A model generated the notes under the pieces. The model worked only from the letters and a program-made list of their open reading frames with translations, was not told the DNA's origin and did not search any database. 64,000 nt of DNA from Betaproteobacteria bacterium (lineage in GTDB: Bacteria > Pseudomonadota > Gammaproteobacteria > Burkholderiales > SG8-39). A program made the translations under genes and the position numbers. Position 1 is the stretch's first letter, and every line of letters begins with the position of its first letter. This document shows positions 2,564 to 36,859 of this stretch, piece by piece. The stretch covers positions 53,400 through 117,399 of the forward strand of contig CANIIA010000001.1 of the NCBI GenBank assembly GCA_947467435.1, given 5' to 3'.

Positions 2564-3922
2564 TCAGTGGCGTGCCGTCAATGAGGTGAGCGTCTGCTCG
2601 ATACTTTGGGCAATAGCGAGGATTTGCGCATCGCTGCCGCCCATCCCCATCACCGACAAACCAACCGGCGCCGCACCAGGACTTTGGCAGGGTACGGTCG
2701 CTTCGCATGCATCCAAAATATTTGCGATGCCGGTGTTGCGTAACAAACGCATATTCCATTGCACATAAGCCTCATCACTGGCTTGTGCTTCGCTGATACT
2801 CGGCGCGGTCGCGGCGGCCGTCGGAAACAACAACGCATCAAATGGCGCGGTGAGCGCGCGTGCTTGCTGGATCAACACCGCGCGGTCTAAACCAAGCTGA
2901 ATGTAATCGCCCGCGGCAAACTGCTGACCCAACACTACACGCGAGGACACACGGGGGTCGTACTCAGCGGCGTGTTGCGCAAGAATCCCGCGATGAATTT
3001 GCCACGCTTCTGCGCCAGCAAAACCACCGTTATTGAAGAACGTTTGCGCTTGCGTCAACAAGGGTGTGGGCACCCGTTGAATGTTCGCACCCGCCTTTGA
3101 AAGTGTTTGCAACGCACGTTCAAATGCTTGCGCCACGATGGGATCCAGTGCATCGAGCAAACTACATTCGGGCACCATGAAGCGCAGTCCACTCAACGGC
3201 AAGGCTTGGGGTAACTGCGGCGTGGCACCTGCAAGAATGGCGTCAAATATCGCGCAACACGCAACGCTGTTGGCTAAGGGGCCAACCGAATCTAAGGTGT
3301 ACGACAACGGAAACGCACCTGCCCGTGGAATGCGTGAGGCTGTGGGTTTGAAACCACTCACACCACACAACGCAGCAGGTAAGCGCACCGAGCCACGCGT
3401 GTCTGAGCCCAATGCCATCACGCACATCGCATCCGCGACCGATACCGCAGCACCCGAAGAAGACCCCCCAGGCACACGGCCCGTTTGACGATCAAACGGA
3501 TTTTTTGGTGTGCCGTAATGCGGATTCAAACCCACACCACCAAATGCAAACTCCACCATGTTGGTTCGACCAACCAACACCGCGCCAGCAGCGCGCAAAC
3601 GCGCAACCACCGGTGCGTCATGCGCCGCCGGCGATGCGCCACGCAATGCTTTCGAGCCAGCACGGGTGACATCTCCTGCAACGTCATACAAATCCTTCAC
3701 TGAAACCGGTAGCCCCTCGACTGGTGAACGGCAAATGCCTGCGGCACGTAATTGATCTGACAGCGCTGCTTCGGCCAAAGCGGTTTTTGCATAGGTGGCT
3801 GTAAAGGTGCGCGCGCCCTCGCCTTGCGGATCGGCAATGCGCTCAAGCGCAGCTTGTACAAGTTGCACGCTGGTCGTACGTCCGGCAGCCAAGTCCGCCG
3901 ATAGAGAAGCGACAGTCCACAT
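2564..3922 (-). CDS. amidase (amidase-signature family, GatA-like)
   Basis: ORF 2564..3994. The start is probably ATG 3922 (MWTVASLSADL), preceded by GAAGGA. The amidase-signature stretch GGSSSGAAVSVA and the SVKD motif are present. Confidence 0.85.
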   Translation of the reverse strand: MWTVASLSADLAAGRTTSVQLVQAALERIADPQGEGARTFTATYAKTALAEAALSDQLRAAGICRSPVEGLPVSVKDLYDVAGDVTRAGSKALRGASPAAHDAPVVARLRAAGAVLVGRTNMVEFAFGGVGLNPHYGTPKNPFDRQTGRVPGGSSSGAAVSVADAMCVMALGSDTRGSVRLPAALCGVSGFKPTASRIPRAGAFPLSYTLDSVGPLANSVACCAIFDAILAGATPQLPQALPLSGLRFMVPECSLLDALDPIVAQAFERALQTLSKAGANIQRVPTPLLTQAQTFFNNGGFAGAEAWQIHRGILAQHAAEYDPRVSSRVVLGQQFAAGDYIQLGLDRAVLIQQARALTAPFDALLFPTAAATAPSISEAQASDEAYVQWNMRLLRNTGIANILDACEATVPCQSPGAAPVGLSVMGMGGSDAQILAIAQSIEQTLTSLTARH

Positions 3923-4160
3923 AAAAAAATCCTTCGTGTGTTTGAAAGCTGTTAGAGGTGCAAACAAGCGCAAGGATGACGCATCGGGGCGCACATCTCA
4001 ACCATCAAACCGCAAGATCATCGGTAATCTAAAGTCCCAATCCGTCACGGTCCCCATGACGGTATGCCTCACAGCGCCCACAAGCGTTCATTACCGCCGC
4101 TGTCGATAACTTTTCATCCCTCCTGACCTCCATGTTGACCACCTTGAGCCTGTTACGCTG

Positions 4161-4886
4161 ATGTTTGACTCACTCAAACGCGTGCTAGCACCTGCTTGTC
4201 AGAGCGCACATCACCAATTGCAACGCATCTTTTCTGGATGTTGCGTGTTGTGTCAGGGGCACACCGATGCTGCACCGGTTTGCGCCGGTTGCGCGCGCGA
4301 CTTACCAAGGATGCCGCGCGCTTGTTGTGCGCGTTGCGCATTACCTTGGTCACCACCAGGTCAATGCGCGCGCTGCGATCGTTTACCACCGGCCTTTGAT
4401 GGCAGTGTGGCTTGTTATCGCTATGGGTTTGCCAGCGACCAACTGATTCACGCGCTGAAATTTCAAGGCCGACTCGCGCTCGGTGCTTGGCTTGGTGCGC
4501 GTCTCGCCGAGGTGGTTGGCCCCAGCTTACCTGTGGATGTGGTGGTGCCCGTTCCACTCGCCACAGCGCGTTTACGACAACGTGGTTGTAATCAAGCCCT
4601 AGAAATCGCGCGCGTTGTGGCACAAACGCACGCATTGATTCTCGATCCGCATGTAGTTCAACGTGTGCGCGATACACCGTCACAACGCGGACTGCGTTTA
4701 ACGCAGCGCCAACAAAATTTGCGTGGTGCGTTTTTATGTCGACGGCCATTGATTGGGTTGCGTATCGGGCTCGTCGATGATGTCATGACCAGTGGCGCAA
4801 CATTGCATGCGGTGGCCGCCGAATTAAAACGTGCCGGTGCACAAAGCGTGGTGAATTGGGTGGTGGCACGCACCGACGTCGATTAG
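4161..4886 (+). CDS. comF: ComF family protein (amidophosphoribosyltransferase-like)
   Basis: 241 aa with N-terminal Cys pairs (CVLCQG, CAGC, CARC, CARC) and a C-terminal PRTase motif, GLVDDVMTSGATL. Confidence 0.85.
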   Translation: MFDSLKRVLAPACQSAHHQLQRIFSGCCVLCQGHTDAAPVCAGCARDLPRMPRACCARCALPWSPPGQCARCDRLPPAFDGSVACYRYGFASDQLIHALKFQGRLALGAWLGARLAEVVGPSLPVDVVVPVPLATARLRQRGCNQALEIARVVAQTHALILDPHVVQRVRDTPSQRGLRLTQRQQNLRGAFLCRRPLIGLRIGLVDDVMTSGATLHAVAAELKRAGAQSVVNWVVARTDVD

Positions 4887-14492: not shown

Positions 14493-16631
14493 TTAGAACG
14501 TGCCGCGCAATCCAACACTCAACGCGCGTCCACCCAGCGGAGCGCGATCTTTCAGAAATGACACGGCGTTGCGCGCCTCCACGTTACCTAAGTTGGTACC
14601 ACGCGCATATAACTCCCATTGCTCATCACCGAGCACTCGAAAGCGATAACTCAAGGCAGCATTCAACATGTTGTAACCATCAGTGGGTAAATTGGTCGGT
14701 AACGTGGTGGTATATGTTGGGATGCGTGTTTGTGCCGCGACGCGCGTGAGATCCACATTTCCGAGCCAACCGGTATTGCGCTTCCACTCCAAGCCGAGGG
14801 TCAGACGTGTCGGGGCGATACGCGGTAATGCATCGCCTTGACTTGTGGCGCGTACCGTATCGGCGCGTGTAATCAACGCCACGCTATCGCCCTGTGCGGC
14901 CCACGCATTGAAGCGTCCTTGTGCCTCCAGGCCACGAAAATACGCCGGAGCAGCAACAAAATTAAATTGCGGTGTCGCGCCGTCTGCGTCATACGCGACC
15001 GACGCACGCGATGCATCGCGGTACAGTTGTGTACCCGAAGACAGCGCGGGCGAGAGATAAATAAAATTTTCAAAGCGGTGTTGAAAAATACCGACGCTGC
15101 CAGTAAGACGGTCCGCCGTTTTACGCAACGACAAATCGATAGCGCGCGATTTTTCTAGACCCAACGTACGATCACCCACTTCAAACGCGCTGGTGGCCGC
15201 GTGCTTCCCGTTGGCATAAAGCTCGGTCACACTTGGCGCGCGCTGTGTCCAAGTGAGATTCGACGCCAGCGCCCATCCAGGTTGTATCGTCCACAACGCT
15301 CCCAGCGCACGACTTTGTGGCGCAAAGTTTTGTGCATTTGATGCAGTGGCCGCGCCGCTGGCATCCACAAATGCCCCGGCATTGACTTTGATCGCATCGC
15401 GTCGCATACCAGCGCTGAGACGTACCTGTTGAAGATCGAGTTCTTCATACACAAACCATGCAACGGCTTCGTTACGCGTGCCAGGTAAAAACGCTTCGCT
15501 TCCGTTGGCCGTGAGGTTTTGAGCACTCGATTGCAGACCAAACAAACCCTTCAACCGACCCACATCACGATGGACCAATTCCAATCGTGCATCGTGTCCG
15601 CCGCTCAGAAACGTGGTGTTGATGGTGCCGCCATCGAGTTCGTCGTGACGATAATTGGTTAAACTCCATTTGACACGCACTGTTTGAATCGGACCCGAAA
15701 GATTGCGTTGTTCAGCCGCAGCATCCCAACGCATCGATTCCATTTTGATCCGGACGTTAGGTTCGACCACGGTGCCGTAATTGCTATTGGTCATGCCAAC
15801 AGACACACCGGCATACCCATCGGTCCAAGCCACCGAACTCCCGAGTCCACCGCCTTCTGCCAATTGATTTGAGTTTGGCAAACGGCCAGACGCCGACAGT
15901 TGCGATGTCGTGAGCCCATTGGTCGATAACGCGCGTAATCGCGTTGAGATTGCATGACCTGGTATCGCTAAGTTTTGCGTGGTACGTCGGTAGGCGTCGG
16001 CATGCACCGTGATCTGTCCATCGCCTGCATCCACATGCGAACGCATGCTTTGTTCGTGAGCCGCACCACCAAGACGCGGTTCAAATTCACCGCGCACACC
16101 CAACACGGGCACCGTAGCAATACGACCATCGACAAGATTCACTACGCCACCGACGGCGTTTCCGCCAAACAATAACGCTGCTGGACCACGCACCACTTCA
16201 ACACGCTCGATTGGCGCCAGATCCACACTCACTGCATGATCGGGGCTTGCTGCCGAAGCATCGATCATCCCCACGCCGTTTTGTAACACGCGTAATCGGT
16301 CACCATCCATGCCACGGATCACCGGTCGGGCCACGTTCGGACCAAAGCCGCTACTACTGACCCCTGGCAGATCAATCAACGCATCCGCTAATCCTGGCGC
16401 GTGACGTAACGACAACGCGCGGCCTTCTAACACCGCCGCAGGCGCGACTAAGTCAAACAGCGTTGATGTTCGCCCGAATGGATCCGCGTGAATCACCACC
16501 GCATCGGTGGTTGCGTCCGTCTCAATGGGAGTGGGCACAGCAGTGCTGGGTGCGGCGGTTTGCGCACACAATGCTGTTGTAAACAAACAGGTGTTCAGGG
16601 CCACCAGACCCCGTCTCAAAACTCTGCGCAT
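14493..16631 (-). CDS. TonB-dependent outer-membrane receptor
   Basis: 712 aa with a signal peptide, a plug domain (RPVIRGMDGDRLRVLQNG...SPDHAVS...RVEVVRGPAALLFGGNAVGGVVN) and a C-terminal barrel ending ..LSVGLRGTF. AGGAG lies upstream of ATG 16631. Confidence 0.9.
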   Translation of the reverse strand: MRRVLRRGLVALNTCLFTTALCAQTAAPSTAVPTPIETDATTDAVVIHADPFGRTSTLFDLVAPAAVLEGRALSLRHAPGLADALIDLPGVSSSGFGPNVARPVIRGMDGDRLRVLQNGVGMIDASAASPDHAVSVDLAPIERVEVVRGPAALLFGGNAVGGVVNLVDGRIATVPVLGVRGEFEPRLGGAAHEQSMRSHVDAGDGQITVHADAYRRTTQNLAIPGHAISTRLRALSTNGLTTSQLSASGRLPNSNQLAEGGGLGSSVAWTDGYAGVSVGMTNSNYGTVVEPNVRIKMESMRWDAAAEQRNLSGPIQTVRVKWSLTNYRHDELDGGTINTTFLSGGHDARLELVHRDVGRLKGLFGLQSSAQNLTANGSEAFLPGTRNEAVAWFVYEELDLQQVRLSAGMRRDAIKVNAGAFVDASGAATASNAQNFAPQSRALGALWTIQPGWALASNLTWTQRAPSVTELYANGKHAATSAFEVGDRTLGLEKSRAIDLSLRKTADRLTGSVGIFQHRFENFIYLSPALSSGTQLYRDASRASVAYDADGATPQFNFVAAPAYFRGLEAQGRFNAWAAQGDSVALITRADTVRATSQGDALPRIAPTRLTLGLEWKRNTGWLGNVDLTRVAAQTRIPTYTTTLPTNLPTDGYNMLNAALSYRFRVLGDEQWELYARGTNLGNVEARNAVSFLKDRAPLGGRALSVGLRGTF

Positions 16632-25298: not shown

Positions 25299-26164
25299 TG
25301 GCTGTGTTGTTGCCCAACGGTGGCTTGTGGTTCGGAGGCCCGCGCCGGTACTTTGTAGCGGTTGTAGCCCCACAGATACTGGCCAGGACAGGTCCGAATT
25401 AAGTCCTCGAGTGCTTGATTGAGTTGTTGGGCAGGTGAGGCATCGTTTTTGGGCGGCGCGTATGGGCGAATGGAGAGCACGTAACCGCGGCCCCACGACA
25501 AACGTCGCGCAAATGCAATCAAACAAACGGTTCCTTCACGCGCGGCCAAGCGCGGCGCCAACGTCATGGTGTATGCCGGTCGACCAAAAAAATCAGCCCA
25601 TACGCCCTCGCCCTCACCAGGCACTTGATCCGGCAAGATGCCAATCGCTTCTCGACGTTTGAGTGCCGCCAATAATTCGCGAACACCCGTGCGGTCTGCG
25701 GTGGCCAGATGCACGCCTTGTCGAGCACGGCCGGCGCGCATGGCGGTTTCTAACCAACGCAAACGAGGTGCGCGATACAAAATCGCCATCGGAAAGTGAA
25801 ATGTGCCGTATTGCGCACTGATCTCAAAACACCCCAAGTGTGGCGTCAGAAACACGATACTTTGACCGGCAGCTTGCGCTTGCGTGACGTGATCCCAGCC
25901 CTCAACAGCGCGGATTAATTTGATGACCGATGGATGAGGTCGTAGCCATAACGCGGGCAATTCGGTGAGCATGCAACCGGCCGACGTAATCGCTGCATGA
26001 CGCACACGTTGATCGTCGCCGTAACCGGCTTGCGCGAGATTGTCGCGTAAATGACGGCGATAACGCGCTGATGCGCCATACATTGTCCAACCGAGCATCG
26101 CACCGACCGCATGCAATACGGGCAATGGAACATAGGCCAGCAGACGCAACAAAAAAAGCATCAA
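25295..26164 (-). CDS. lipid A biosynthesis late acyltransferase (LpxL/HtrB family), copy 1
   Basis: 289 aa. [15 protein letters not shown]...[11 protein letters not shown]...ILPDQVP...YLWGYNRYK, the same family as the downstream copy. Confidence 0.8.
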
Positions 26165-26316
26165 ACGATCAAGCTTTCATCCGACGCAACACGAATCGGC
26201 AAGAGTGGGAAGTCACGGCAAGCTCTGCTATCCTTGCAAACCTTAATGAGCGCGCGCCATTGGTTTGGTCTTTGGTGTGCGCCCACTTCGTCCACCTCAA
26301 CAGTAGGCAGCCACGC

Positions 26317-27477
26317 ATGAGCGAATATCTTTTTACCTCCGAGTCGGTCTCGGAAGGCCATCCCGATAAAGTTGCAGACGCAATTTCCGACGCGGTTCTT
26401 GATGCAATTCTAGCCCAGGACCCGCGTTCGCGCGTGGCAGCCGAAACGCTGGTCAAAGACAATCTCGTGGTCTTGGCCGGTGAAATCACGACCGGCGCAA
26501 AAAATTTAGATTTTCGCGACATCGCGCGCAAAACCATTCGACGTATTGGTTACACCGATCCGGCAATTGGATTTGATGCCGGCACGTGTACCGTCTTAGT
26601 GGCCTATGGCGAACAATCACAACACATCGCCCAAGGCGTGAACGAAGGCAGTGGCTTGGATCTCGATCAAGGCGCGGGTGACCAAGGCTTAATGTTTGGT
26701 TACGCATGTGACGAAACACCCGGACTGATGCCGATGGCGATTTATTTGTCACATCGCTTGGTCGAGCGTCAATCCGAAGTGCGTCGCGATGGCCGTTTAA
26801 AATGGCTGCGTCCAGATGCAAAATCGCAGGTCACGATCCGCTACGTGAATGGCAAACCTGATTCCATCGACACGGTGGTGCTCTCTACCCAGCACGGCCC
26901 CGGTCTAACGCACAAACAAATCGAAGAAGCGGTGATTGAGCAAATCATCCAGCCCGTGCTACCCAAAGAGCTGATCAAAGGCAAAATTAATTATTTAGTG
27001 AACCCCACCGGTGCGTTTGAAATCGGCGGTCCGAGCGGCGATTGCGGCCTCACCGGTCGCAAGATCATTGTCGACACGTATGGTGGTTCAGCACCGCACG
27101 GTGGTGGCGCGTTCTCGGGTAAAGACCCTTCAAAGGTCGACCGCTCAGCGGCCTACGCTGCGCGCTATGTCGCCAAAAATATTGTGGCCGCTGGTTTAGC
27201 CAAAGAATGTCTGGTGCAAGTCAGCTACGCCATTGGTGTGGCCAAACCCACCAGCGTGATGGTCACCACCAAAGGCACCGGAAAAATTTCGGACGAAAAA
27301 CTCTCGCAACTGGTGCAAACGCATTTTGATTTGCGTCCCAAAGGCATCGTTCAAATGCTCAACCTATTGCGTCCGATCTATGAAAAGACCTCGGCCTATG
27401 GCCACTTTGGGCGTGATGAGCCTGAGTTCACTTGGGAAGCCATCGACAAAGCTGCGGCGCTGAAATCAGCGGCATAA
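26317..27477 (+). CDS. metK: S-adenosylmethionine synthetase
   Basis: From ATG 26317: [32 protein letters not shown]..., then [12 protein letters not shown] and [19 protein letters not shown]. Confidence 0.97.
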
Positions 27478-27611: not shown

Positions 27612-28808
27612 TTAACCCAACGCAGCCATCGCTTCACGAAACGGCGCCATCGGCATTTCACCCAAACCGCGGCCCAACAAACCGCGACCCAAGGGATCCA
27701 CCATACCGGTTGAAAGCACCGGCGCACGCCCCGTTCGGATCACCGCCGCGGCATCGACACCGACCGCTACACCCAACACCGGATGCATGGCACACAGCAA
27801 GCTTTGTGCGCGTTGCGCATCATCTTTGGCGAGCCACGGCTCAAACGCCGTCAGCAAACTCGGTGCACGACGTAACACCTGACCACCTAAACCAAACGCA
27901 TCGATAATGCCGCTATCGCCCGTCGCGGGCGGAAACTGTGGGTCGGGGATAGTCAGTCCTTTCATGTACGGCCCCTGCACCAAACCAGCAGGGGCGGTAA
28001 ACCAACGATCCGGTAAGCCGGCCAATTGAATGCCGGTCACTTGTCCGTTGGCACACAAGCGTGTCACCACGCTTGAACCAGCCACGCCGCGCGCAGCATC
28101 CAACATCAACGCGCAAGCGGGCATCCACACATTTAAAAAATACAGCGGCGCTTCGATCAGCGTTTGTAGGGCCGCTTGTGTATCCGCGGCATCGGTTTTG
28201 CGTGTACTCAGTACCCCATGTAACACTTGCGTGGCGCTCGATAGACGATTGTGTAAATCATCACCCTCAGTCAGCGCAGAGCGCGCAATCGACAGTAAAT
28301 CGACTGGGCCCGCGCTCAACAACGCAGCAAATCCCGGCGCGAGTGTTTGTTCACGAAACTTCAGTCGCTCAACAATCACTGGGTCACACGACCCGAAGCG
28401 CATTTGTGCACCACCACCGGTACCAAGAAATCCGTGCCAACGCACTTTGTTGGCACCTTCACCCGATTCAATCAACGCCAACGTCGTGCTGGCGCTAATC
28501 ATCGCCACCAGTGGTGTTGAGGCGCGATGTGCGGCCGTCGGTTCGAAGCGCACGCGACCGGCGTCAATCAGCGCTTCAGCACCAGCGCGATCGGTTGCCC
28601 AACCTTCGGCAAGACAACTCAAGATCGCAGCATGGCGCATCGGCGGTGGTAACTGACGCGCATCCGGTAACGGTGGCCCCGCATGTAACAGCACGTGATC
28701 TTGCAGCCCCAAGGCCTCACGCGCCGATTGCACCCCAGTCCAACGCGGCACCACCGCAAGAATGCGTTGCAAAGCGTCGACGTTTGCGCTGTTTAGGTCG
28801 GAATTCAT
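27612..28808 (-). CDS. DUF1116 family protein (YlbE/AllG-like)
   Basis: 398 aa. It is collinear with E. coli YlbE as I recall it: LLHAGPP, LYFLNVWMPA (FFLNLAMA), VTRLCANG (VTAMTRNG), PDRWFTAP (GERWFTAP), GDSGIIDAFGLGG (GDSAITETFGIGG). Confidence 0.75.
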   Translation of the reverse strand: MNSDLNSANVDALQRILAVVPRWTGVQSAREALGLQDHVLLHAGPPLPDARQLPPPMRHAAILSCLAEGWATDRAGAEALIDAGRVRFEPTAAHRASTPLVAMISASTTLALIESGEGANKVRWHGFLGTGGGAQMRFGSCDPVIVERLKFREQTLAPGFAALLSAGPVDLLSIARSALTEGDDLHNRLSSATQVLHGVLSTRKTDAADTQAALQTLIEAPLYFLNVWMPACALMLDAARGVAGSSVVTRLCANGQVTGIQLAGLPDRWFTAPAGLVQGPYMKGLTIPDPQFPPATGDSGIIDAFGLGGQVLRRAPSLLTAFEPWLAKDDAQRAQSLLCAMHPVLGVAVGVDAAAVIRTGRAPVLSTGMVDPLGRGLLGRGLGEMPMAPFREAMAALG

Positions 28809-28851: not shown

Positions 28852-28928
28852 GCCTCTCAAGGAGCGTTGCGACGTCGGTTCACAGCCGATGCCAGGCTTG
28901 AGAGATTCCTACCGCAACGGCGCTCACG
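28852..28928 (+). promoter_or_regulatory. SAH (S-adenosylhomocysteine) riboswitch
   Basis: CCUCUCAAGGAGCGUUGCGACGUCGGUUCACAGCCGAUGCCAGGCUUGAGAGAUUCCUACCGCAACGGCGCUCAC contains the conserved SAH-element blocks AGGAGCGUUGCGAC, GCCAGGCU and CAACGGCGCUCAC, plus the P1 pairing CUCUCAAG/CUUGAGAG. It lies directly upstream of ahcY, the classic context. Confidence 0.85.
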
Positions 28929-28955
28929 AACTTTTTTCGATACTGAAAGGAGGGC

Positions 28956-30377
28956 GTGATGAACGCCGTACTACAACCCAAGACGACCCACGATTATGTC
29001 GTGGCTGACCTCTCTCTGGCCGAATGGGGCCGCAAAGAGATTTTAATCGCCGAAACCGAAATGCCTGGTTTGATGGCGATCCGCGAAGAATATGCCGCCC
29101 AGCAGCCGCTGCGTGGCGCCCGTATCACGGGTTCTTTGCACATGACCATTCAAACCGCGGTGCTCATCGAAACGCTGCAAGCATTGGGCGCTGAAGTACG
29201 TTGGGCCTCATGCAACATTTACTCTACGCAAGACCACGCCGCCGCTGCGATTGCCGCCAAAGGCACGCCCGTGTTTGCCTACAAGGGCGAAACGCTCGAT
29301 GAGTACTGGGAATACACCCATCGTATTTTTGAGTGGCCCAACGGTCGTCAATCCAACATGATTCTTGATGACGGTGGCGATGCCACATTGCTGTTGCATT
29401 TAGGCACGCGTGCGGAAAGCGATTTGGCAGTCATCAGCCACCCCACCAGCGAAGAAGAAACCTCGCTGTTTGCCTCGATCAAAGCCAAATTGGCGCAAGA
29501 TCCAAAGTGGTATTCAACCCGCTTGAAAGAAATCAAAGGGGTCACCGAAGAAACCACCACCGGCGTACATCGTTTGTACCAGATGGCCAAAGAAGGCAAG
29601 CTCGCTTTCCCGGCCATCAACGTGAACGATTCGGTCACCAAGAGCAAATTCGACAACCTGTACGGTTGCCGCGAGTCCTTGGTCGATGGCATCAAGCGCG
29701 CCACCGATGTGATGATTGCCGGCAAAGTGGCCGTCGTGGCAGGTTACGGCGATGTGGGTAAAGGTTCGGCACAAGCCCTCCGCGCACTTTCCGCCCAAGT
29801 CTGGGTCACCGAAATTGACCCAATCAACGCACTGCAAGCCGCGATGGAAGGCTACCGTGTGGTGACCATGGATTACGCGGCGGATAAAGCCGACATCTTT
29901 GTCACCGCCACCGGCAACTTTCATGTCATCACAGTCGATCACATGAAGAAAATGAAAGACCAAGCCATCGTATGCAACATCGGTCACTTTGATAACGAGA
30001 TTGATGTCGCTGGCTTAAACGATTGCAAGTGGGAAGAAATCAAACCGCAAGTCGATCACGTCATCTTTCCGGACGGCAAACGCATCATCATGCTCGCCAA
30101 AGGACGTTTGGTGAATCTGGGTTGTGGCACGGGCCATCCGTCGTATGTAATGAGCTCTTCGTTTGCCAATCAGACCATCGCGCAAATCGAGCTGTTTTGC
30201 AACACCGCCAAATACCCGATCGGCGTGTATGTGCTACCCAAGCATCTGGATGAAAAAGTCGCGCGCTTACAGCTGAAAAAGCTCAACGCGCAGCTGACCG
30301 AACTCACGGATGTGCAAGCACGTTACATCGGTGTACCCAAGGTCGGTCCGTACAAGCCCGACACCTACCGCTACTAA
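28956..30377 (+). CDS. ahcY: adenosylhomocysteinase
   Basis: AAGGAGGG RBS with start GTG 28956 or ATG 28959. [34 protein letters not shown]... and the NAD site [15 protein letters not shown] are present. Confidence 0.97.
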
Positions 30378-31305: not shown

Positions 31306-32811
31306 CTAAGCCGCTTTTTTCTTGCGCTGCGCGTCTTTCACATGCATTTGAGCATACGCACCGTGTGCTGCCGATTCTGCGTCACCAACATGTACAGGCA
31401 GGCCCAAGTCTGACAACACCGAACCCAACGCCGATAAACACAACATCACGTTATCGGGGCGGCACGAGTAACCCATTAAACCAAAGCGCCAGATTTTGCC
31501 TGCCAATGGTCCAAGGCCTGCGCCGATCTCAATACCAAACTCAGCGAGCAGGCGCTTGCGCACTTCGGCTTCATTCACATCCGCTGGACACAACACCGCG
31601 TTCATTTGAGGCAGTTGATATTGTTCTTTTACCAAGAACGTTAAACCCATCGCTTCGAGGCCAGCCTTGAGCGCCACATGATGACGATGCGCGCGCGCCC
31701 ACGCGTTTTCTAAGCCTTCTTCGCGAATCAATAACAACGCTTCATGCAACGCAAATAACGAATTAGTGGGCGCGGTGTGATGGTAAGTGCGTGTGGTTGC
31801 ACCCCAATAGCCGAGCAACAAGTTCATGTCCATAAACCAGCTGCGAATTTTGTCTTTGCGCGCTTTCACGTGATCGACCACGCGCTCGCTAAATGACACC
31901 GGCGATAAGCCCGGAGTACACGACAAACATTTCTGACTGCCCGAATAAATCGCATCGATTTCCCATTCATCCACCAGCACCGGCGTGCCCGCTAATGAAG
32001 TGACCGCATCCACAATCGTGAGTGCGTTGTGGGCGTGCGCGATTTCGACCAAGGTTTTGGCATCAGATTGCGCGCCGGTGGATGTTTCAGCATGTACAAA
32101 CGCAACCACACGCGCATCCGGATTTTTTTTCAGCGCATCTTCAAGTTTTTGTGGATCGACCGGTTCGCCCCAAGTATCTTCAACCAACACCGGCACGCCG
32201 CCTGCACGAATCACGTTTTCGAGCATGCGTCCACCAAACACACCGTTTTGGCAAACCACCACCTTGTCACCCGGCGCGACCATGTTCACAAAGCAATACT
32301 CCATCCCCACCGATCCGGGGCCAGAGACCGGGAAGGTCAACGGATTTTTAGTTTGATACACATAGCGCAACAGCGATTTCAACTCTTCCATCATCTCGAC
32401 AAACACTGGGTCAAGATAACCAATCGCGGGTTGACTCATGGTGGTGAGAACACGCGGATGAATTTCGGTGGGCCCAGGGCCCATCAAGGTGCGCTGTGGC
32501 GGATGAAAAGAGTGGATGCGTTTAGCGGGTGCGTACTTAAGCATAGGGTCGTTCCCGGTTGCGGCGCCGACAAAATCGTCAGGCCTAGATTTGACGCGGA
32601 CAGGTTTTTTTTCTGCGGCTTCATTTAAAACATCGGTGGCAGCGATGCGACCGTCGGTGCGTAACTCAACCTCCATGGCCCAACGCGCCGGCACGTAGCC
32701 AGACTTGACCCAGTGGCTCACCAACGCGCGGTCCAAGGACAGCGCGCGCGCCACTTCGGCCTGACTTCCAAAAATTTCGACGAGTCGTTGTGCGCAGTTC
32801 ATCGGGGTCAT
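31306..32811 (-). CDS. fusion protein: N-terminal Cro/YdaS-type HTH domain + class-V aminotransferase (alanine-glyoxylate / serine-pyruvate aminotransferase family)
   Basis: One uninterrupted 514-codon ORF (31306..32850). The N-terminus, CAQRLVEIFGSQAEVARALSLDRALVSHWVKSGYVPARWAMEVELRTDGRI, resembles YdaS/Cro HTH. From about aa 103 it reads as an AGXT family member (LMGPGPTEIHPRVL, AFVHAETSTGAQ, YSGSQKCL with the PLP lysine). The start is ambiguous: ATG at 32850, 32811, 32802, or internal at 32544. Confidence 0.75.
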   Translation of the reverse strand: MTPMNCAQRLVEIFGSQAEVARALSLDRALVSHWVKSGYVPARWAMEVELRTDGRIAATDVLNEAAEKKPVRVKSRPDDFVGAATGNDPMLKYAPAKRIHSFHPPQRTLMGPGPTEIHPRVLTTMSQPAIGYLDPVFVEMMEELKSLLRYVYQTKNPLTFPVSGPGSVGMEYCFVNMVAPGDKVVVCQNGVFGGRMLENVIRAGGVPVLVEDTWGEPVDPQKLEDALKKNPDARVVAFVHAETSTGAQSDAKTLVEIAHAHNALTIVDAVTSLAGTPVLVDEWEIDAIYSGSQKCLSCTPGLSPVSFSERVVDHVKARKDKIRSWFMDMNLLLGYWGATTRTYHHTAPTNSLFALHEALLLIREEGLENAWARAHRHHVALKAGLEAMGLTFLVKEQYQLPQMNAVLCPADVNEAEVRKRLLAEFGIEIGAGLGPLAGKIWRFGLMGYSCRPDNVMLCLSALGSVLSDLGLPVHVGDAESAAHGAYAQMHVKDAQRKKKAA

Positions 32812-32817
32812 TTTATA

Positions 32818-32935
32818 CTGACAAAATGAATTTGACAAAACCTTGACCATACTTCACATCAGCTGTGGAACGACAGTTGACCCACCAACCACCCGGCGTA
32901 GCATGCAGGGCTTGCTAACCCAATGTTTGACAAAG
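32818..32935 (+). repeat. array of five same-orientation TTGAC(A/C) motifs in the divergent control region
   Basis: cTGACAAAA (32818), TTGACAAAA (32832), TTGACCAT (32843), TTGACCCA (32877), TTGACAAAG (32927). The start-to-start spacings are 14, 11, 34 and 50 nt. Confidence 0.4.
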
Positions 32936-32984: not shown

Positions 32985-34721
32985 ATGAAGCCCGCTCAGC
33001 CTGCCGAAGTGACCGCTAAAACCACCGCTGAAACCTATCTCGAACTGTTGGCCTCGCGCGGGGTGGACTACTTATTTGCCAACGGCGGCACGGATTTCGC
33101 GCCGATCGTGGAGGCGTACGCAAACGCCATGGCCAAGGGGAGCAAAGTCCCGGAGCCGGTGATCGTGCCGCACGAAAATATGGGGGTCGCGATGGCACAC
33201 GGCTACACCATGGTGACAGGTAAGCCGCAAGCCATGATGGTCCATGTCGGCATGGGCACTGCAAACTCGATCAACTGCGTGATCAACGCGGCACGTCAAA
33301 ATATTCCGATGTTATTTACCGCGGGTCGCACACCGATCACTGAATCGGGTGATGTCCCTGGCGCGCGCAATAACTATATTCATTGGGCACAAGAACACTT
33401 TGATCAAGGCGCGATGTTGCGCGAGTTCGTGAAATGGGATTACGAACTTCGTCATCCCGAGCAAATCGAAACCGTTGTAGATCGCGCCTTAGCTATTACG
33501 CAATCAGAACCGTCGGGGCCGGTGTATCTCACCTTACCGCGTGAAATTCTTGGCCTACCGCACACCGGCCGCGCGCCACGCGCCAGCACCACACAAGTGG
33601 CGGCCACACAACCTACCGCAGATGCCCACGCGCTCGATGAGATTTGTAAGCTGCTGCTCGCGGCAAAAAATCCATTACTCATTACCGCGAACGGTGGTCG
33701 GACATCCGAAGGCGCGCGTGCACTTACACGATTTGCTGAACGTTGGGCCATGCCTGTGGTGCATTACCGTCCACGTTATTTAGCGATGTCGACCGAACAC
33801 CCGCTGGCTGCTGGATGGGAGCCGCATGCGGCATTAAAGACCGCCGATGTAGTCATCGTCGTTGAATGTGATGTGCCATGGATTCCCGTGCAAGGTGGTC
33901 CGCGCGATGACGCAAAGATCGTACATATTGGTGCCGATCCTTTGTTTACGCGCTACCCATTACGCGGTTTTCGTACCGACATTGCGCTCACCGGTTTGGT
34001 GGCGCCAACACTCAACGCATTAGCAGATCGCGCACCAGAAGCCGCAACACTCAAGGCACGCTACGACAGCACGGTCAAGGCCTGCGAAGCCTTACGCGCT
34101 TCACAACGCAGCGGCTGCGACACCATGCCCAAAACACTCACCACCAAATACGTGACGGCGTGCCTCAATCAACTCATCAACGCCAAGTGTGGTGAAGACG
34201 CATTGTTTGTGAACGAATATCCCTTGGTGTTAGAAGAAATGCAGATTCGTACGCCCGGTCGATACTTTGGTTCGGCACCAGCCGGTGGATTGGGCTGGGG
34301 CTTAGGTGCAGCAGTCGGGGCCAAACTTGCCGCACGCGACAAAACGGTCATCTGCACGGTGGGTGATGGCGCCTACATGTTTGGTAATCCAACGGCCGCG
34401 CACTTTGCGTCACGCGCAATGGGCATGCCCGTACTGTTTATCGTCTATAACAACGCACGCTGGGCGGCGGTGCATCGTTCAACACTGGCGATGTATCCAA
34501 ACGGCACCGCTTCAAAAATGGCCCAACCACCGTTTGCCACACTCGAGCCTTCACCGCACTTTGAAAAAGTTGCCGAAGCCTCCGATGCGTTAGGCATACG
34601 CGTGAGTCGCCCTGAAGAGTTAATGGCTGCACTCGAGCGCGGCTTACACGCCGTGCAAGTAGAAAAGCGCCAAGCACTCATCAACGTCGAACTCGAGGTC
34701 AGCTACGTAAAAACCAGCTGA
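32985..34721 (+). CDS. thiamine-diphosphate-dependent enzyme (acetolactate synthase / benzoylformate decarboxylase superfamily, subfamily unassigned)
   Basis: 578 aa. GAGGAG RBS; N-terminal PYR domain (GVDYLFANGGTDFAPIVEA...PHENMGVAMAHGY...VHVGMGTANS); ThDP motif GDGAYMFGNPTAAHFASRAMGMPVLFIVYNNARW. Confidence 0.85.
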   Translation: MKPAQPAEVTAKTTAETYLELLASRGVDYLFANGGTDFAPIVEAYANAMAKGSKVPEPVIVPHENMGVAMAHGYTMVTGKPQAMMVHVGMGTANSINCVINAARQNIPMLFTAGRTPITESGDVPGARNNYIHWAQEHFDQGAMLREFVKWDYELRHPEQIETVVDRALAITQSEPSGPVYLTLPREILGLPHTGRAPRASTTQVAATQPTADAHALDEICKLLLAAKNPLLITANGGRTSEGARALTRFAERWAMPVVHYRPRYLAMSTEHPLAAGWEPHAALKTADVVIVVECDVPWIPVQGGPRDDAKIVHIGADPLFTRYPLRGFRTDIALTGLVAPTLNALADRAPEAATLKARYDSTVKACEALRASQRSGCDTMPKTLTTKYVTACLNQLINAKCGEDALFVNEYPLVLEEMQIRTPGRYFGSAPAGGLGWGLGAAVGAKLAARDKTVICTVGDGAYMFGNPTAAHFASRAMGMPVLFIVYNNARWAAVHRSTLAMYPNGTASKMAQPPFATLEPSPHFEKVAEASDALGIRVSRPEELMAALERGLHAVQVEKRQALINVELEVSYVKTS

Positions 34722-36859
34722 TGACACAGCCCGCCAAACACGTGGTGCGTGAAGGCGCACAAATCGCTTTAGCACCACGTAGCATCGCCATCATTGGTGC
34801 ATCAGACAACCCCGAAAAAATCGGCGGGCGTCCGATTAAATATCTGCAGCGCTTTGGTTATCGCGGTCGCATCGATCCGATCAATCCAAATCGCAGTGAA
34901 ATTCAAGGCCTCAAGGCCTACGCAGATTTATCTGCGACACCCGATGCTCCCGAGCTTGCAATTGTTGCGGTGCCCGGACAAGCGGCCTTCGATGCGGTAC
35001 GTGCTTGCGCCGTACGCGGCGTCAAAGTCGCGGTGGTGATCGCTTCGGGTTTTGGCGAGATGGGCGCAGAAGGAAAACAACAACAAGCCGAGATGGTGCG
35101 AATTGCACGTGCTGCAGGTATGCGCTTGATTGGACCCAATGTGCAAGGGGTGGCAAATTTTGCTTCAGGCGCGGTGTTTAATTTCAACACCACGTTTAGT
35201 GAAACCACGCCACTCGATGGTCCCATTGCGATCGTGAGCCAATCCGGCGCGATGAGTGCCTTGCCGTATGCACATTTACGTACGGCAGGTTTGGGCGTGC
35301 GATATGCCTGCTCCACTGGCAATGAAGCTGATCTCACCGTGGCCGATTTTATGTTGGCCGTTGCGCAAGACCCCGAGATCAAACTGCTGTTGCTCTATCT
35401 CGAAGCAATTGCTGATGTACCGCGCTTTGAACAAGCGGCACGTTTTGCCCGAGCCCGTGGTTTGCCGATCGTGGCGCTGAAGTCAGGGGTTTCTCCGCGT
35501 GGCATGCAAGCCGCCACTTCGCACACCGGTGCATTGGCCACAGAAGATCGCACCGTCGCTGCGTTGTTTCGTCAGCATGGCATTTTGCGTGTCGAGGATG
35601 TACGTGCCTTCGTCAATGCTGCGCCGCTGTATTTACAAGGTTGGCACGCACAAGCGCGCCCACTCGGTCAACGGATTGTCGCGGTCAGCAACTCGGGTGC
35701 TTCGTGTGTGATGGCCGCAGATACCGCGCATCGTTTGGGTATGCCATTGGGTGATTTTGATGTCGCAACACGCGCCGACCTTGCCAAGGTGTTGCCAGAG
35801 TTTGGCGCAGCAGCCAATCCGATTGATCTCACCGCAGCGCTACTGAACAACAATCGGATGTTTGGTGATCTGCTTAACACGTTAGCGCAGCACGATGCCG
35901 CCGATGCGGTGTACATCAGCTTGCCTGCCTCCGGTGCGGGCTACGATTTGCCGCGCTACCTCGATGACTGCATCACCTTCGTACGTCAAACAGCACGTCC
36001 CTTAGTGATGGCCAATCCATTGGCAGCATCAGCCAAAGTATTTCGCGACGGCGGTGTGGTGGTGTTTGATCATGAAGTGGCGGCGCTTGAGGCCTTGGTG
36101 CAACTGATTAAGCACGATGCATTACTGCGTCGTGCCGAACCGCCCGTCACACCGATCCAAGCACCCGCACTGCCTGCGGGCGACGCGCGCTATTTATCTG
36201 AAAGCGATAGTTTGAACTGGTTGCATGCAGCGGGCTTACCAGCGATCGAACATGTGCTGTGTCGTCATGCTGAAGATGCAGCACAAGCCCTGCAACGCTT
36301 TGGCGCACCGGTGGTGATAAAAGGCTGTTCGGCTCACGTGCCGCATAAATCAGAATACGGCCTTGTCAAACTCGGCATACAAAACGCAGCGGCTGCGCGC
36401 GAGGCGTTTACTGCAGTGATGCAGGGATTGGCGCAGTTAAACGTGCCCGATGCTGCGGTGTTAGTTGCGCCGATGCGTAAAGCGCAGCGTGAGTTTGTGG
36501 TCGGAGCGCGATTCGATCCGCGCTTTGGCACACTGGTCATGCTGGGTGATGGTGGCAAATACATCGAAGCTTTGCCGGATATTGCGTTGCTGCGTTGGCC
36601 GTTTGATGCACAAGCGGTTGAAGAAGCCTTACACAGCTTACGTATTGCCCCCTTGTTTGCAGGCGTACGTGGTGAACCACCACTGGCACTCGAGGGCTTG
36701 GTACACATTGCACTGCAACTCGGCGCGCTGCTCGACGCAGCGAAAGGTGGGATTGCTTCGATTGATGCCAACCCGGTGATGGTGGGTGCAAGTAGGGCTG
36801 ATACGGTGATTGTCGATGCGCTCATCGAGCGTGGGACACACGGTTTATCGATGCGGTAA
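34721..36859 (+). CDS. NDP(ADP)-forming acyl-CoA synthetase, fused alpha/beta (CoA-binding + ATP-grasp)
   Basis: 712 aa. CoA-binding start SIAIIGASDNPEKIGGRPIKYL, ligase-CoA region GPNVQGVAN, phosphohistidine loop ATSHTGALA, and a C-terminal ATP-grasp domain. Its start overlaps the ThDP gene stop (TGATG). Confidence 0.85.
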   Translation: MTQPAKHVVREGAQIALAPRSIAIIGASDNPEKIGGRPIKYLQRFGYRGRIDPINPNRSEIQGLKAYADLSATPDAPELAIVAVPGQAAFDAVRACAVRGVKVAVVIASGFGEMGAEGKQQQAEMVRIARAAGMRLIGPNVQGVANFASGAVFNFNTTFSETTPLDGPIAIVSQSGAMSALPYAHLRTAGLGVRYACSTGNEADLTVADFMLAVAQDPEIKLLLLYLEAIADVPRFEQAARFARARGLPIVALKSGVSPRGMQAATSHTGALATEDRTVAALFRQHGILRVEDVRAFVNAAPLYLQGWHAQARPLGQRIVAVSNSGASCVMAADTAHRLGMPLGDFDVATRADLAKVLPEFGAAANPIDLTAALLNNNRMFGDLLNTLAQHDAADAVYISLPASGAGYDLPRYLDDCITFVRQTARPLVMANPLAASAKVFRDGGVVVFDHEVAALEALVQLIKHDALLRRAEPPVTPIQAPALPAGDARYLSESDSLNWLHAAGLPAIEHVLCRHAEDAAQALQRFGAPVVIKGCSAHVPHKSEYGLVKLGIQNAAAAREAFTAVMQGLAQLNVPDAAVLVAPMRKAQREFVVGARFDPRFGTLVMLGDGGKYIEALPDIALLRWPFDAQAVEEALHSLRIAPLFAGVRGEPPLALEGLVHIALQLGALLDAAKGGIASIDANPVMVGASRADTVIVDALIERGTHGLSMR

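Follow-up and report, generated by a model that had tools for sequence, protein, structure and literature searches.

A Cro-type helix-turn-helix domain fused to a class V aminotransferase in Betaproteobacteria, with a candidate operator in its own promoter

The 64,000-nucleotide stretch of a betaproteobacterial genome analysed here (assembly GCA_947467435.1, contig CANIIA010000001.1, positions 53,400 to 117,399; hereafter the window) carries on its minus strand a gene (31306..32802, 498 amino acids plus stop) in which a Cro/YdaS-type helix-turn-helix (HTH) domain is joined in frame to an AGXT-type aminotransferase domain, a class V fold that uses pyridoxal phosphate (PLP). We consider it probable, if by no means assured, that the gene encodes an active AGXT aminotransferase carrying a domesticated phage Cro domain, that the dimer binds a palindrome in its own promoter and exerts negative autoregulation, and that two products are made, one with and one without the HTH. 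The enzyme-regulator combination appears to be undescribed.

A scan of one genome per GTDB species returned at least 573 matching stretches, from which 80 loci were kept and inspected; all 80 come from metagenome-assembled or single-cell genomes labelled Betaproteobacteria or Burkholderiales, and one (L003) belongs to the same organism as the window. In every one of the 80, one tblastn segment (82-100% identity) spans residues 2-490 of 498 or more, and in 69 it extends to residue 498. The ratio of nonsynonymous to synonymous substitutions (dN/dS, by the Nei-Gojobori method) comes to 0.17 in the HTH, 0.18 in the linker and 0.15 in the enzyme domain. By these measures the fusion is real, its frame is unbroken and purifying selection maintains it, and the question raised by a previous sequence-only reading of this DNA, whether orthologues keep the two modules together, is answered in the affirmative: no stop or frameshift separates them at any locus. 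In a library of representatives at 50% identity there is a single cluster of full-length fused proteins (P0241), and its next relatives, at no more than 57% identity, are ordinary 400-residue enzymes without an HTH, so the fusion constitutes one tight orthologous group.

The open reading frame (ORF) that contains the gene (31306..32850, minus strand, 514 codons) is free of stops between its two modules, as had been reported from the sequence alone, where translation was taken to begin at 32850 and to give 514 amino acids. That start has to be moved, because most of the 80 orthologous loci have an in-frame stop 3-8 codons 5' of the residues MNCA..., which puts the real start at ATG 32802 and the coding sequence at 498 amino acids. 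The corresponding position is ATG or GTG in 72 of the loci, while in the other eight the start is a GTG, ATG or TTG in frame, three or four codons further 5', and the public homologues listed are mostly 498-503 amino acids long. The ATG codons at 32850 and 32811 are not starts, and lie inside or upstream of the promoter. Within the protein, the all-alpha HTH domain occupies residues 1-66 (32605..32802), an assignment supported by Pfam, structure prediction, Foldseek, PDB profile matches and dN/dS. It is followed by a conserved linker or N-terminal arm (residues 67-96, 32515..32604) with a basic PVRVKSRP motif, in which P67, R69, K71, S72 and R73 are invariant, and by the class V aminotransferase domain (residues 97-498, 31309..32514), assigned from its PF00266 and PDB matches.

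When the first 103 residues are scanned alone against Pfam, they match YdaS_toxin (PF15943, 38.1 bits, gathering threshold 30) and P22_Cro (PF14549, 32.0 bits, threshold 30.2), which bears out the earlier recognition of a YdaS/Cro-type HTH at this end of the protein. PF15943 scores 34.4 bits when the full protein is scanned, there are weak hints of other phage-type HTH families (NinH, CI repressor), and GntR gives no match in the Pfam scan of the fusion protein. A profile of the domain, compared with the PDB, retrieves the Cro protein of Xfaso-1 (3bd1, E 9e-4), the XPH1 hybrid Cro and P22 Cro. The AlphaFold2 prediction for residues 1-75 (predicted local distance difference test, pLDDT, 93.6) has five helices and no wing, and a Foldseek search with it again ranks Xfaso-1 Cro first (3bd1, TM-score 0.74/0.86, root-mean-square deviation 1.4 Å), followed by the XPH1 hybrid Cro, N15 Cro (2hin; DNA complex 6on0) and P22 Cro (1rzs), with YdaS of CP-933P lower in the list. 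By analogy with Cro, the helix-turn-helix itself would be formed by helices 2 and 3 (residues 14-20 and 25-34). Some dozen positions of the domain do not vary, among them R19, R25, W31 and a PARW motif; invariance of the catalytic motifs in the enzyme was judged over 70 homologues. The closest annotated phage or plasmid relatives are stand-alone Cro-like repressors (38-44% identity) from temperate phages of Pseudoalteromonas, Alteromonas, Pseudomonas and Klebsiella.

Because the Pfam and PDB profiles, the predicted structure with its Foldseek neighbours and the phage Cro-like relatives all point the same way, the N-terminal domain is best described as a domesticated all-alpha phage Cro, with a profile score above the curated threshold and a predicted five-helix fold. 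It departs from that family in setting: phage Cro and YdaS are small stand-alone proteins of 60-80 residues encoded in prophage immunity regions, whereas here the domain is fused to a 400-residue enzyme in a conserved chromosomal context, and neither a cI-like partner nor prophage genes were seen among the flanking ORFs of the window. The N-terminal 42 residues also match the NCBIfam model NF046037 ('carph-isopro domain', 54 positions) at 31.8 bits, below its cut-off of 38; a literature search for this domain gave no description, and the match stays an unexplained lead. A word-index search with the short HTH query for fusions to other enzymes returned only short proteins, by a method that is blind to other architectures.

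The C-terminal part matches Aminotran_5 (PF00266, E about 4e-22, 78 bits), and the class I family PF00155 reaches only 21.5 bits over a partial stretch. Among solved structures the best match is the alanine-glyoxylate aminotransferase of Nostoc (1vjo, 340 bits), followed by PucG (3isl, 296 bits) and human AGT (about 250 bits). The alignment with these structures brings into register the lysine of YSGSQK (K291, codon 31930..31932, minus strand), the aspartate of IVDAVTS and the arginine of KIWRFG (motifs written more generally as SQK, VDxVTS and WR(F/V)GLMG), in agreement with the earlier description of a class V, AGXT-type domain that retains its PLP lysine (YSGSQKC). K291, D265, R439, S160-G161, F189 and Y340-T343 are invariant among the homologues; their roles we take from what is known of human AGT, namely PLP lysine, pyridine-nitrogen aspartate and carboxylate-binding arginine for the first three. 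None of the NCBIfam equivalogs reached its cut-off for the enzyme domain, the nearest being BhcA (198 bits, cut-off 650), PhnW/AepZ (175, cut-off 361) and pyridoxamine-pyruvate transaminase (192, cut-off 600). The domain is predicted to be an active aminotransferase of the AGXT family (glyoxylate/pyruvate type). In public records the protein goes only by 'aminotransferase class V-fold PLP-dependent enzyme' or 'alanine-glyoxylate transaminase...'.

When the 80 loci are aligned at their start codons, a single upstream element emerges, cTTGTCAAA-N5-TTTGACA-nnC-TAgAcT, whose palindromic part carries near 2 bits per core position between flanks that cannot be aligned. The family consensus of the palindrome is TGTCAAA-N5-TTTGACA; the copy in the window (32819..32837, minus strand) reads TGTCAAA-TTCAT-TTTGTCA, with one mismatch in its right half. 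Counted over the 79 loci with enough upstream sequence, the palindrome is present with at most two mismatches in all; no locus has more than one copy, and that copy invariably sits at the promoter of the fused gene. Across the 0.94 Mb of search space (window plus related loci) no further copy was found, except in L002, an error-rich locus, at the same position, and at window position 15657, a match with two mismatches that is at chance level. The element is there whatever the upstream neighbour, and these neighbours fall into 23 clusters, including a thiamine diphosphate (ThDP) enzyme, ttcA, a major facilitator superfamily (MFS) transporter and DUF3750.

The palindrome is built into a promoter. 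Its left half overlaps a -35 hexamer, TTGTCA (32833..32838, minus strand), which is invariant in 79 of 79 loci and is followed after a 17-nt spacer by a -10 hexamer, TAAAAT (32810..32815), that ends 7 nt before ATG 32802. An independent promoter scan of the window returned the same -35/-10 pair (10/12 matches), and across the family the -10 hexamer is TAnAnT, as TAGACT, TAGAAT, TAAACT or TAAAAT. In 69 of the 79 loci, 5-10 nt separate the -10 hexamer from the first in-frame start codon, and in some loci with a distant aligned ATG a GTG, ATG or TTG three or four codons upstream restores a spacing of 6-9 nt; ten loci keep a gap of 16-26 nt. A motif resembling a Shine-Dalgarno (SD) sequence precedes the full-length start in only four of the 79. 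Since the -10 hexamer sits so close to the start and SD-like motifs are rare, the transcript is predicted to be leaderless, an option that had been raised from the window sequence, where no candidate start has a good SD. An operator laid across the -35 hexamer and the spacer would be the classical arrangement of an autorepressor, by analogy with Cro/CI-type proteins, for which autoregulation through promoter-overlapping operators is typical.

Several database entries depart in appearance from the fused architecture. Stand-alone 'YdaS' proteins were considered as products of gene fission and rejected as such: the two that could be traced to long contigs directly adjoin an aminotransferase and come from error-rich long-read assemblies (L001, L002, ENA) in which metK, ahcY and murC are also fragmented. 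Entries of 412 or 418 amino acids that seem unfused were likewise set aside; P0395, the entry examined, is a gene call cut short, with both the operator and an in-frame HTH lying upstream, P0396 is on a contig equal in length to that of the 498-residue P0057, and in L208 (GCA_016706095.1) the fused gene is annotated from an internal methionine as a protein of 412 amino acids, so that the HTH is lost.

Among these entries only P0391 (431 amino acids as called), which occurs on 10 contigs, truly lacks the HTH. Its homology to the fusion starts at residue 65, a stop lies upstream and the HTH is absent in every frame; the locus has no palindrome and a different promoter. P0391 nests inside the fused clade, its enzyme domain being 95% identical to that of L052, and the gene has a GC content of 64% between flanks of 49-52%. 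It looks like a copy that left the fused clade by recent horizontal transfer and in which HTH and operator were lost jointly. Its persistence implies that the enzyme part is viable alone. On three metagenome contigs from JGI (L083-L085) the gene (3001..4296) has an amidohydrolase, an RF-1-domain protein and an aldo-keto reductase as neighbours. The HTH and the palindrome are thus linked across the loci: the element follows the fused gene across different neighbourhoods and is lost with the HTH in P0391.

A second translation start is likely inside the gene. Met87 (ATG, 32542..32544, minus strand), the candidate start of a 412-residue enzyme-only isoform, is ATG in 78 of 80 loci and is the only conserved methionine codon with an SD-like sequence upstream; in the window this is GGGAA (32552..32556), 7 nt before the ATG, and in most orthologues GGAG or GGGAG. 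An SD-like 4-mer precedes Met87 in 72% of loci, compared with a gene-wide mean of 14%. The amino acids before Met87 vary (ESDPM, GSDAM, PEDPAM), yet most loci keep a GGAG 7 or 9 nt ahead of the ATG, and the codons used to spell it are anomalous. When the fourth codon before Met87 encodes Gly it is GGG or GGA in 20 of 20 cases (gene-wide, 77% of Gly codons are GGC), and the Ser that follows is AGT in 11 of 12 (AGT makes up 3% of the Ser codons in the gene); when it encodes Glu, the preceding codon ends in a purine in 51 of 55, with A in 14 (A accounts for 5% of third positions). Such codon usage reflects selection at the nucleotide level for a ribosome-binding site, which strengthens the earlier suggestion of an internal start at 32544 and makes it likely that the 412-residue isoform is produced. 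Both proteins would then come from one mRNA, the 498-residue form by leaderless initiation and the shorter one from the internal start. Because Met87 falls, in the alignment, at roughly the position where the unfused homologues P0242 and P0247 begin, the linker probably derives from a former cro-aminotransferase intergenic region together with the old N-terminus of the enzyme, with the SD still in use.

In the mechanism proposed, the enzyme would form a dimer, as AGXT enzymes do, and thereby carry two Cro domains on linkers of about 30 residues. These would bind TGTCAAA-N5-TTTGACA, which, in the sigma70-type promoter of the gene itself, overlaps the -35 hexamer and takes up the spacer, and would repress transcription, giving negative autoregulation. 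The leaderless transcript, with the AUG at 32802 at its 5' end, would be translated into the 498-residue regulator-enzyme, and the internal SD and AUG (32544) on the same mRNA would probably give the 412-residue enzyme-only form. Cro proteins bind palindromic operators as dimers, and those of N15 and lambda dimerise weakly (dissociation constant 3-5 uM) and that of P22 not detectably (PMC6649833); given this weak dimerisation of Cro alone, a dimeric fusion partner is a plausible substitute. That the HTH binds the palindrome, and that binding represses, is something we infer from the arrangement of the loci. A mixture of dimers of the long and short isoforms could tune repression. The least certain element is that the substrate or the PLP state may modulate DNA binding. 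An extended version, in which the protein represents a new class of PLP-enzyme transcription factor independent of MocR, its binding answers the substrate or PLP state, and the dimer mix (long/long, long/short, short/short) of the two isoforms sets the level of repression, is put forward only tentatively and is more doubtful than the simpler account.

Several observations weigh against the autoregulatory account. The palindrome, at 19 bp, is longer than the operators of N15 (16 bp) and lambda (17 bp) given in PMC6649833. In the clade of the window (12 loci; L003-L013 and L064 share the site) the right half-site is TTTGTCA, so that the symmetry is broken and the element, with its changed half at 32819..32825, reads as two copies of TTGTCA 14 bp apart and not as a palindrome. 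Near-identical palindromes, TTGTCAAAA-N3-TTTTGACAA, stand between LysR-regulator and MFS-transporter genes in unrelated bacteria. The joint loss of HTH and operator in P0391 is a single evolutionary event, and the full-length AlphaFold2 model, made from a shallow alignment, is poor (pLDDT 64.6); its values drop below 50 in the linker and in part of the enzyme, so that it was left unused for the arrangement of the domains. The TTTGTCA half-site co-occurs perfectly with Met43 and a residue other than Arg at position 47 in helix 4 of the HTH; as covariation between recognition helix and operator this was discarded, all 12 cases belonging to what is probably one clade and being too confounded to count. 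A metagenome-wide palindrome scan for a regulon was also uninformative, in that 75 of the 80 loci it returned lack the fused gene and are mostly chance matches in unrelated, mostly AT-rich DNA, together with the LysR/MFS sites.

Those LysR/MFS sites bear on who binds the operator. Perfect copies of TTGTCAAAA-N3-TTTTGACAA lie in divergent intergenic regions on five metagenome contigs (L089, L127, L144, L158, L164) and look like a conserved LysR box that resembles the fused-gene operator. They lend some weight to the idea that the palindrome serves another transcription factor, for instance of the LysR type, with the HTH binding elsewhere or having a role other than autoregulation, all the more so since the HTH is tied to this DNA by inference. 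We regard this as unlikely, because neither a LysR gene nor any other regulator gene is a conserved neighbour across the 23 clusters of upstream genes, the site travels with the fused gene and disappears with the HTH, and an autoregulatory operator at the promoter is what would be expected of a Cro/CI protein. More improbable again is that the HTH is an irrelevant relic, translation proceeding essentially from ATG 32544 and the upstream frame standing open by chance or weak constraint. The conserved internal SD and ATG, the 412-residue product called by some annotation pipelines and a 5' start without SD all fit such a relic; however, the HTH frame is open in 80 of 80 loci with its low dN/dS at near-saturated dS and its dozen or so invariant residues, the position of the promoter would start the transcript at the upstream AUG, and an untranslated remnant would not keep a Pfam-significant Cro profile across hundreds of species. 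That the fusion is an artefact of assembly or annotation, two adjacent genes having been joined by a frameshift or a missed stop, can be given practically no weight: the short 'stand-alone YdaS' proteins in databases are what would suggest it, yet both traced examples come from error-rich assemblies, where they immediately precede the aminotransferase, and 80 independent assemblies, each with one uninterrupted frame, refute it.

The remaining alternative concerns the gene next door. The sequence-only reading had proposed either a MocR-like effector-sensing regulator or a bifunctional enzyme-regulator, in control of the divergent operon for the ThDP enzyme and an acyl-CoA synthetase. In its strongest form, the aminotransferase would be only a PLP or effector sensor and a means of dimerisation, and the main task of the protein would be to regulate that operon. 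MocR regulators do keep the PLP lysine, 26 of the 80 loci have the ThDP gene (NCBIfam PRK08327, 671 bits) as immediate divergent neighbour, and in five of these the palindrome is 14-58 nt from the ThDP start. In the other 54 loci, however, the ThDP gene is not adjacent, and where it is, the distance from operator to ThDP start varies (14-537 nt), whereas the operator is always at the -35/-10 of the fusion gene and its distance to that start is conserved; moreover, the clade of the window has a separate element, GTTCCGCA, at the ThDP promoter. Control of the ThDP operon as a conserved role is therefore not supported, although a short intergenic region (60-100 nt, five loci) may allow co-regulation. 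A pure regulator is also hard to reconcile with an enzyme domain that is more conserved than the HTH and keeps its substrate-binding arginine and phosphate-binding residues invariant, with the survival of the HTH-less copy as an independent gene after transfer, and with a conserved internal SD and ATG, which implies that free enzyme is wanted. We rate this alternative as poor, below that of a foreign transcription factor and slightly above that of the relic. Of the two options first proposed, the bifunctional enzyme-regulator is favoured by the palindrome in its own promoter, and a pure MocR-like sensor is less likely than an active enzyme in view of the invariant catalytic motifs and the HTH-less copy.

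The autoregulatory enzyme so envisaged can be set beside several known systems. It shares with MocR, GabR and PdxR an operator in the promoter region, but these regulators combine a GntR winged helix with a class I PLP domain like that of aspartate aminotransferase (PF00155), in place of which the fusion has an all-alpha Cro/YdaS HTH and the class V AGXT domain (PF00266); in addition, its PLP domain looks fully catalytic and its candidate operator consists of one 19-bp palindrome within its own promoter. As the class of HTH and the class of aminotransferase both differ, the fusion is by its domain content not a member of the MocR/GabR group but an analogue, and the absence of a GntR match, together with PF00266 as best family and the partial match to PF00155, upholds the initial view that this is not their architecture. 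By analogy it is closer to the trigger enzymes BirA, PutA and NadR, and like these and archaeal RbkR it would join a metabolic enzyme and a repressor in one chain, predicted to control the promoter of its own gene or pathway. A competent enzyme, a DNA-binding domain and an operator at the cognate promoter are all found here, at the level of sequence only. It differs from the trigger enzymes in the classes of its enzyme and HTH, in that the only target detected, in the 0.94 Mb searched, is its own promoter, predicted to be leaderless, and in probably making a second, enzyme-only isoform from an internal start. With the phage Cro proteins (P22 1rzs, N15 2hin/6on0, Xfaso-1 3bd1) and with YdaS (Rac/CP-933P) it shares the profile, the predicted fold and a promoter-overlapping palindrome; a further likeness to Cro would be a weak intrinsic dimerisation that needs help (PMC6649833). 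To AGXT and PucG (1vjo, 3isl, human AGT 1h0c) it aligns over the whole enzyme domain, sharing the PLP lysine, the aspartate, the aromatic stacking residue, a YHHT motif and the carboxylate-binding arginine, and it is set apart from them by the 96-residue N-terminal extension with the HTH and by NCBIfam equivalog scores that are all far below cut-off. Full-text literature searches on YdaS/Cro with aminotransferases and on trigger enzymes gave no description of a protein combining Cro/YdaS with a class V aminotransferase, in line with what had been said before any search was made.

In most of the 80 loci the fused gene lies between ttcA and metF-ahcY-metK, convergent with metF. YdjM is downstream in 25 loci, and ttcA, MFS, DUF3750 or the ThDP gene is upstream; an attempt to read a pathway from operon partners was abandoned, the flanking genes being too variable. 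In the window the divergent pair (32985..36859, plus strand) consists of the ThDP enzyme and an ADP-forming acyl-CoA synthetase of 712 amino acids with CoA_binding, Succ_CoA_lig and ATP-grasp_5 domains; the pair is uncharacterised, and at 34721 the stop of the ThDP gene overlaps the start of the synthetase gene. A candidate promoter for the pair, TTGACC-16-TAGCAT, is at 32877..32904. Beside the ThDP promoter in the clade of the window (L003, L005-L011, L013) is the GTTCCGCA element (TGCGGAAC on the ThDP strand), of which the window has the copy GTTCCACA, with one mismatch, at about 32875..32868 on the minus strand. It occurs in only one of the 54 loci without an adjacent ThDP gene, and through it the ThDP operon may have a regulator site of its own.

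Further away, an S-adenosylhomocysteine (SAH) riboswitch (28853..28932, plus strand; Rfam RF01057, 61.5 bits, gathering score 37) lies directly upstream of ahcY (28956..30377), with metF downstream, an arrangement expected for Betaproteobacteria. Between metK and ahcY is an ORF of 398 amino acids (27612..28808, minus strand) with an AllG domain (oxamate carbamoyltransferase subunit; PF06545, E 1e-51); among relatives the ORF is confined to the closest ones (L003, L004, L012), and it is noted because the second-best PDB match of the fused enzyme, PucG, belongs to the ureide pathway. The ORF listed for metK (26071..27477, plus strand, 468 amino acids) has an N-terminal extension of about 80 residues ahead of the canonical sequence, and the gene probably starts near 26320 with a long untranslated region upstream, where no Rfam family reached its gathering score.

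If the proposed account is true, the fusion would represent a second, independently evolved coupling of a PLP aminotransferase to DNA binding, after MocR/GabR. There are also lessons for annotation, since public records cut to 412 amino acids lose the HTH and error-rich long-read assemblies yield spurious 'stand-alone YdaS' proteins. With one gene, one operator and one leaderless promoter, the system is compact, which should make it easy to test in vitro, and it might find use as a small autoregulatory module linked to a metabolite. Betaproteobacteria from soil, groundwater and freshwater carry the family in at least several hundred species, with no cultured representative among the genomes inspected, and the fusion would thus be an apparently unstudied regulatory device in an abundant lineage.

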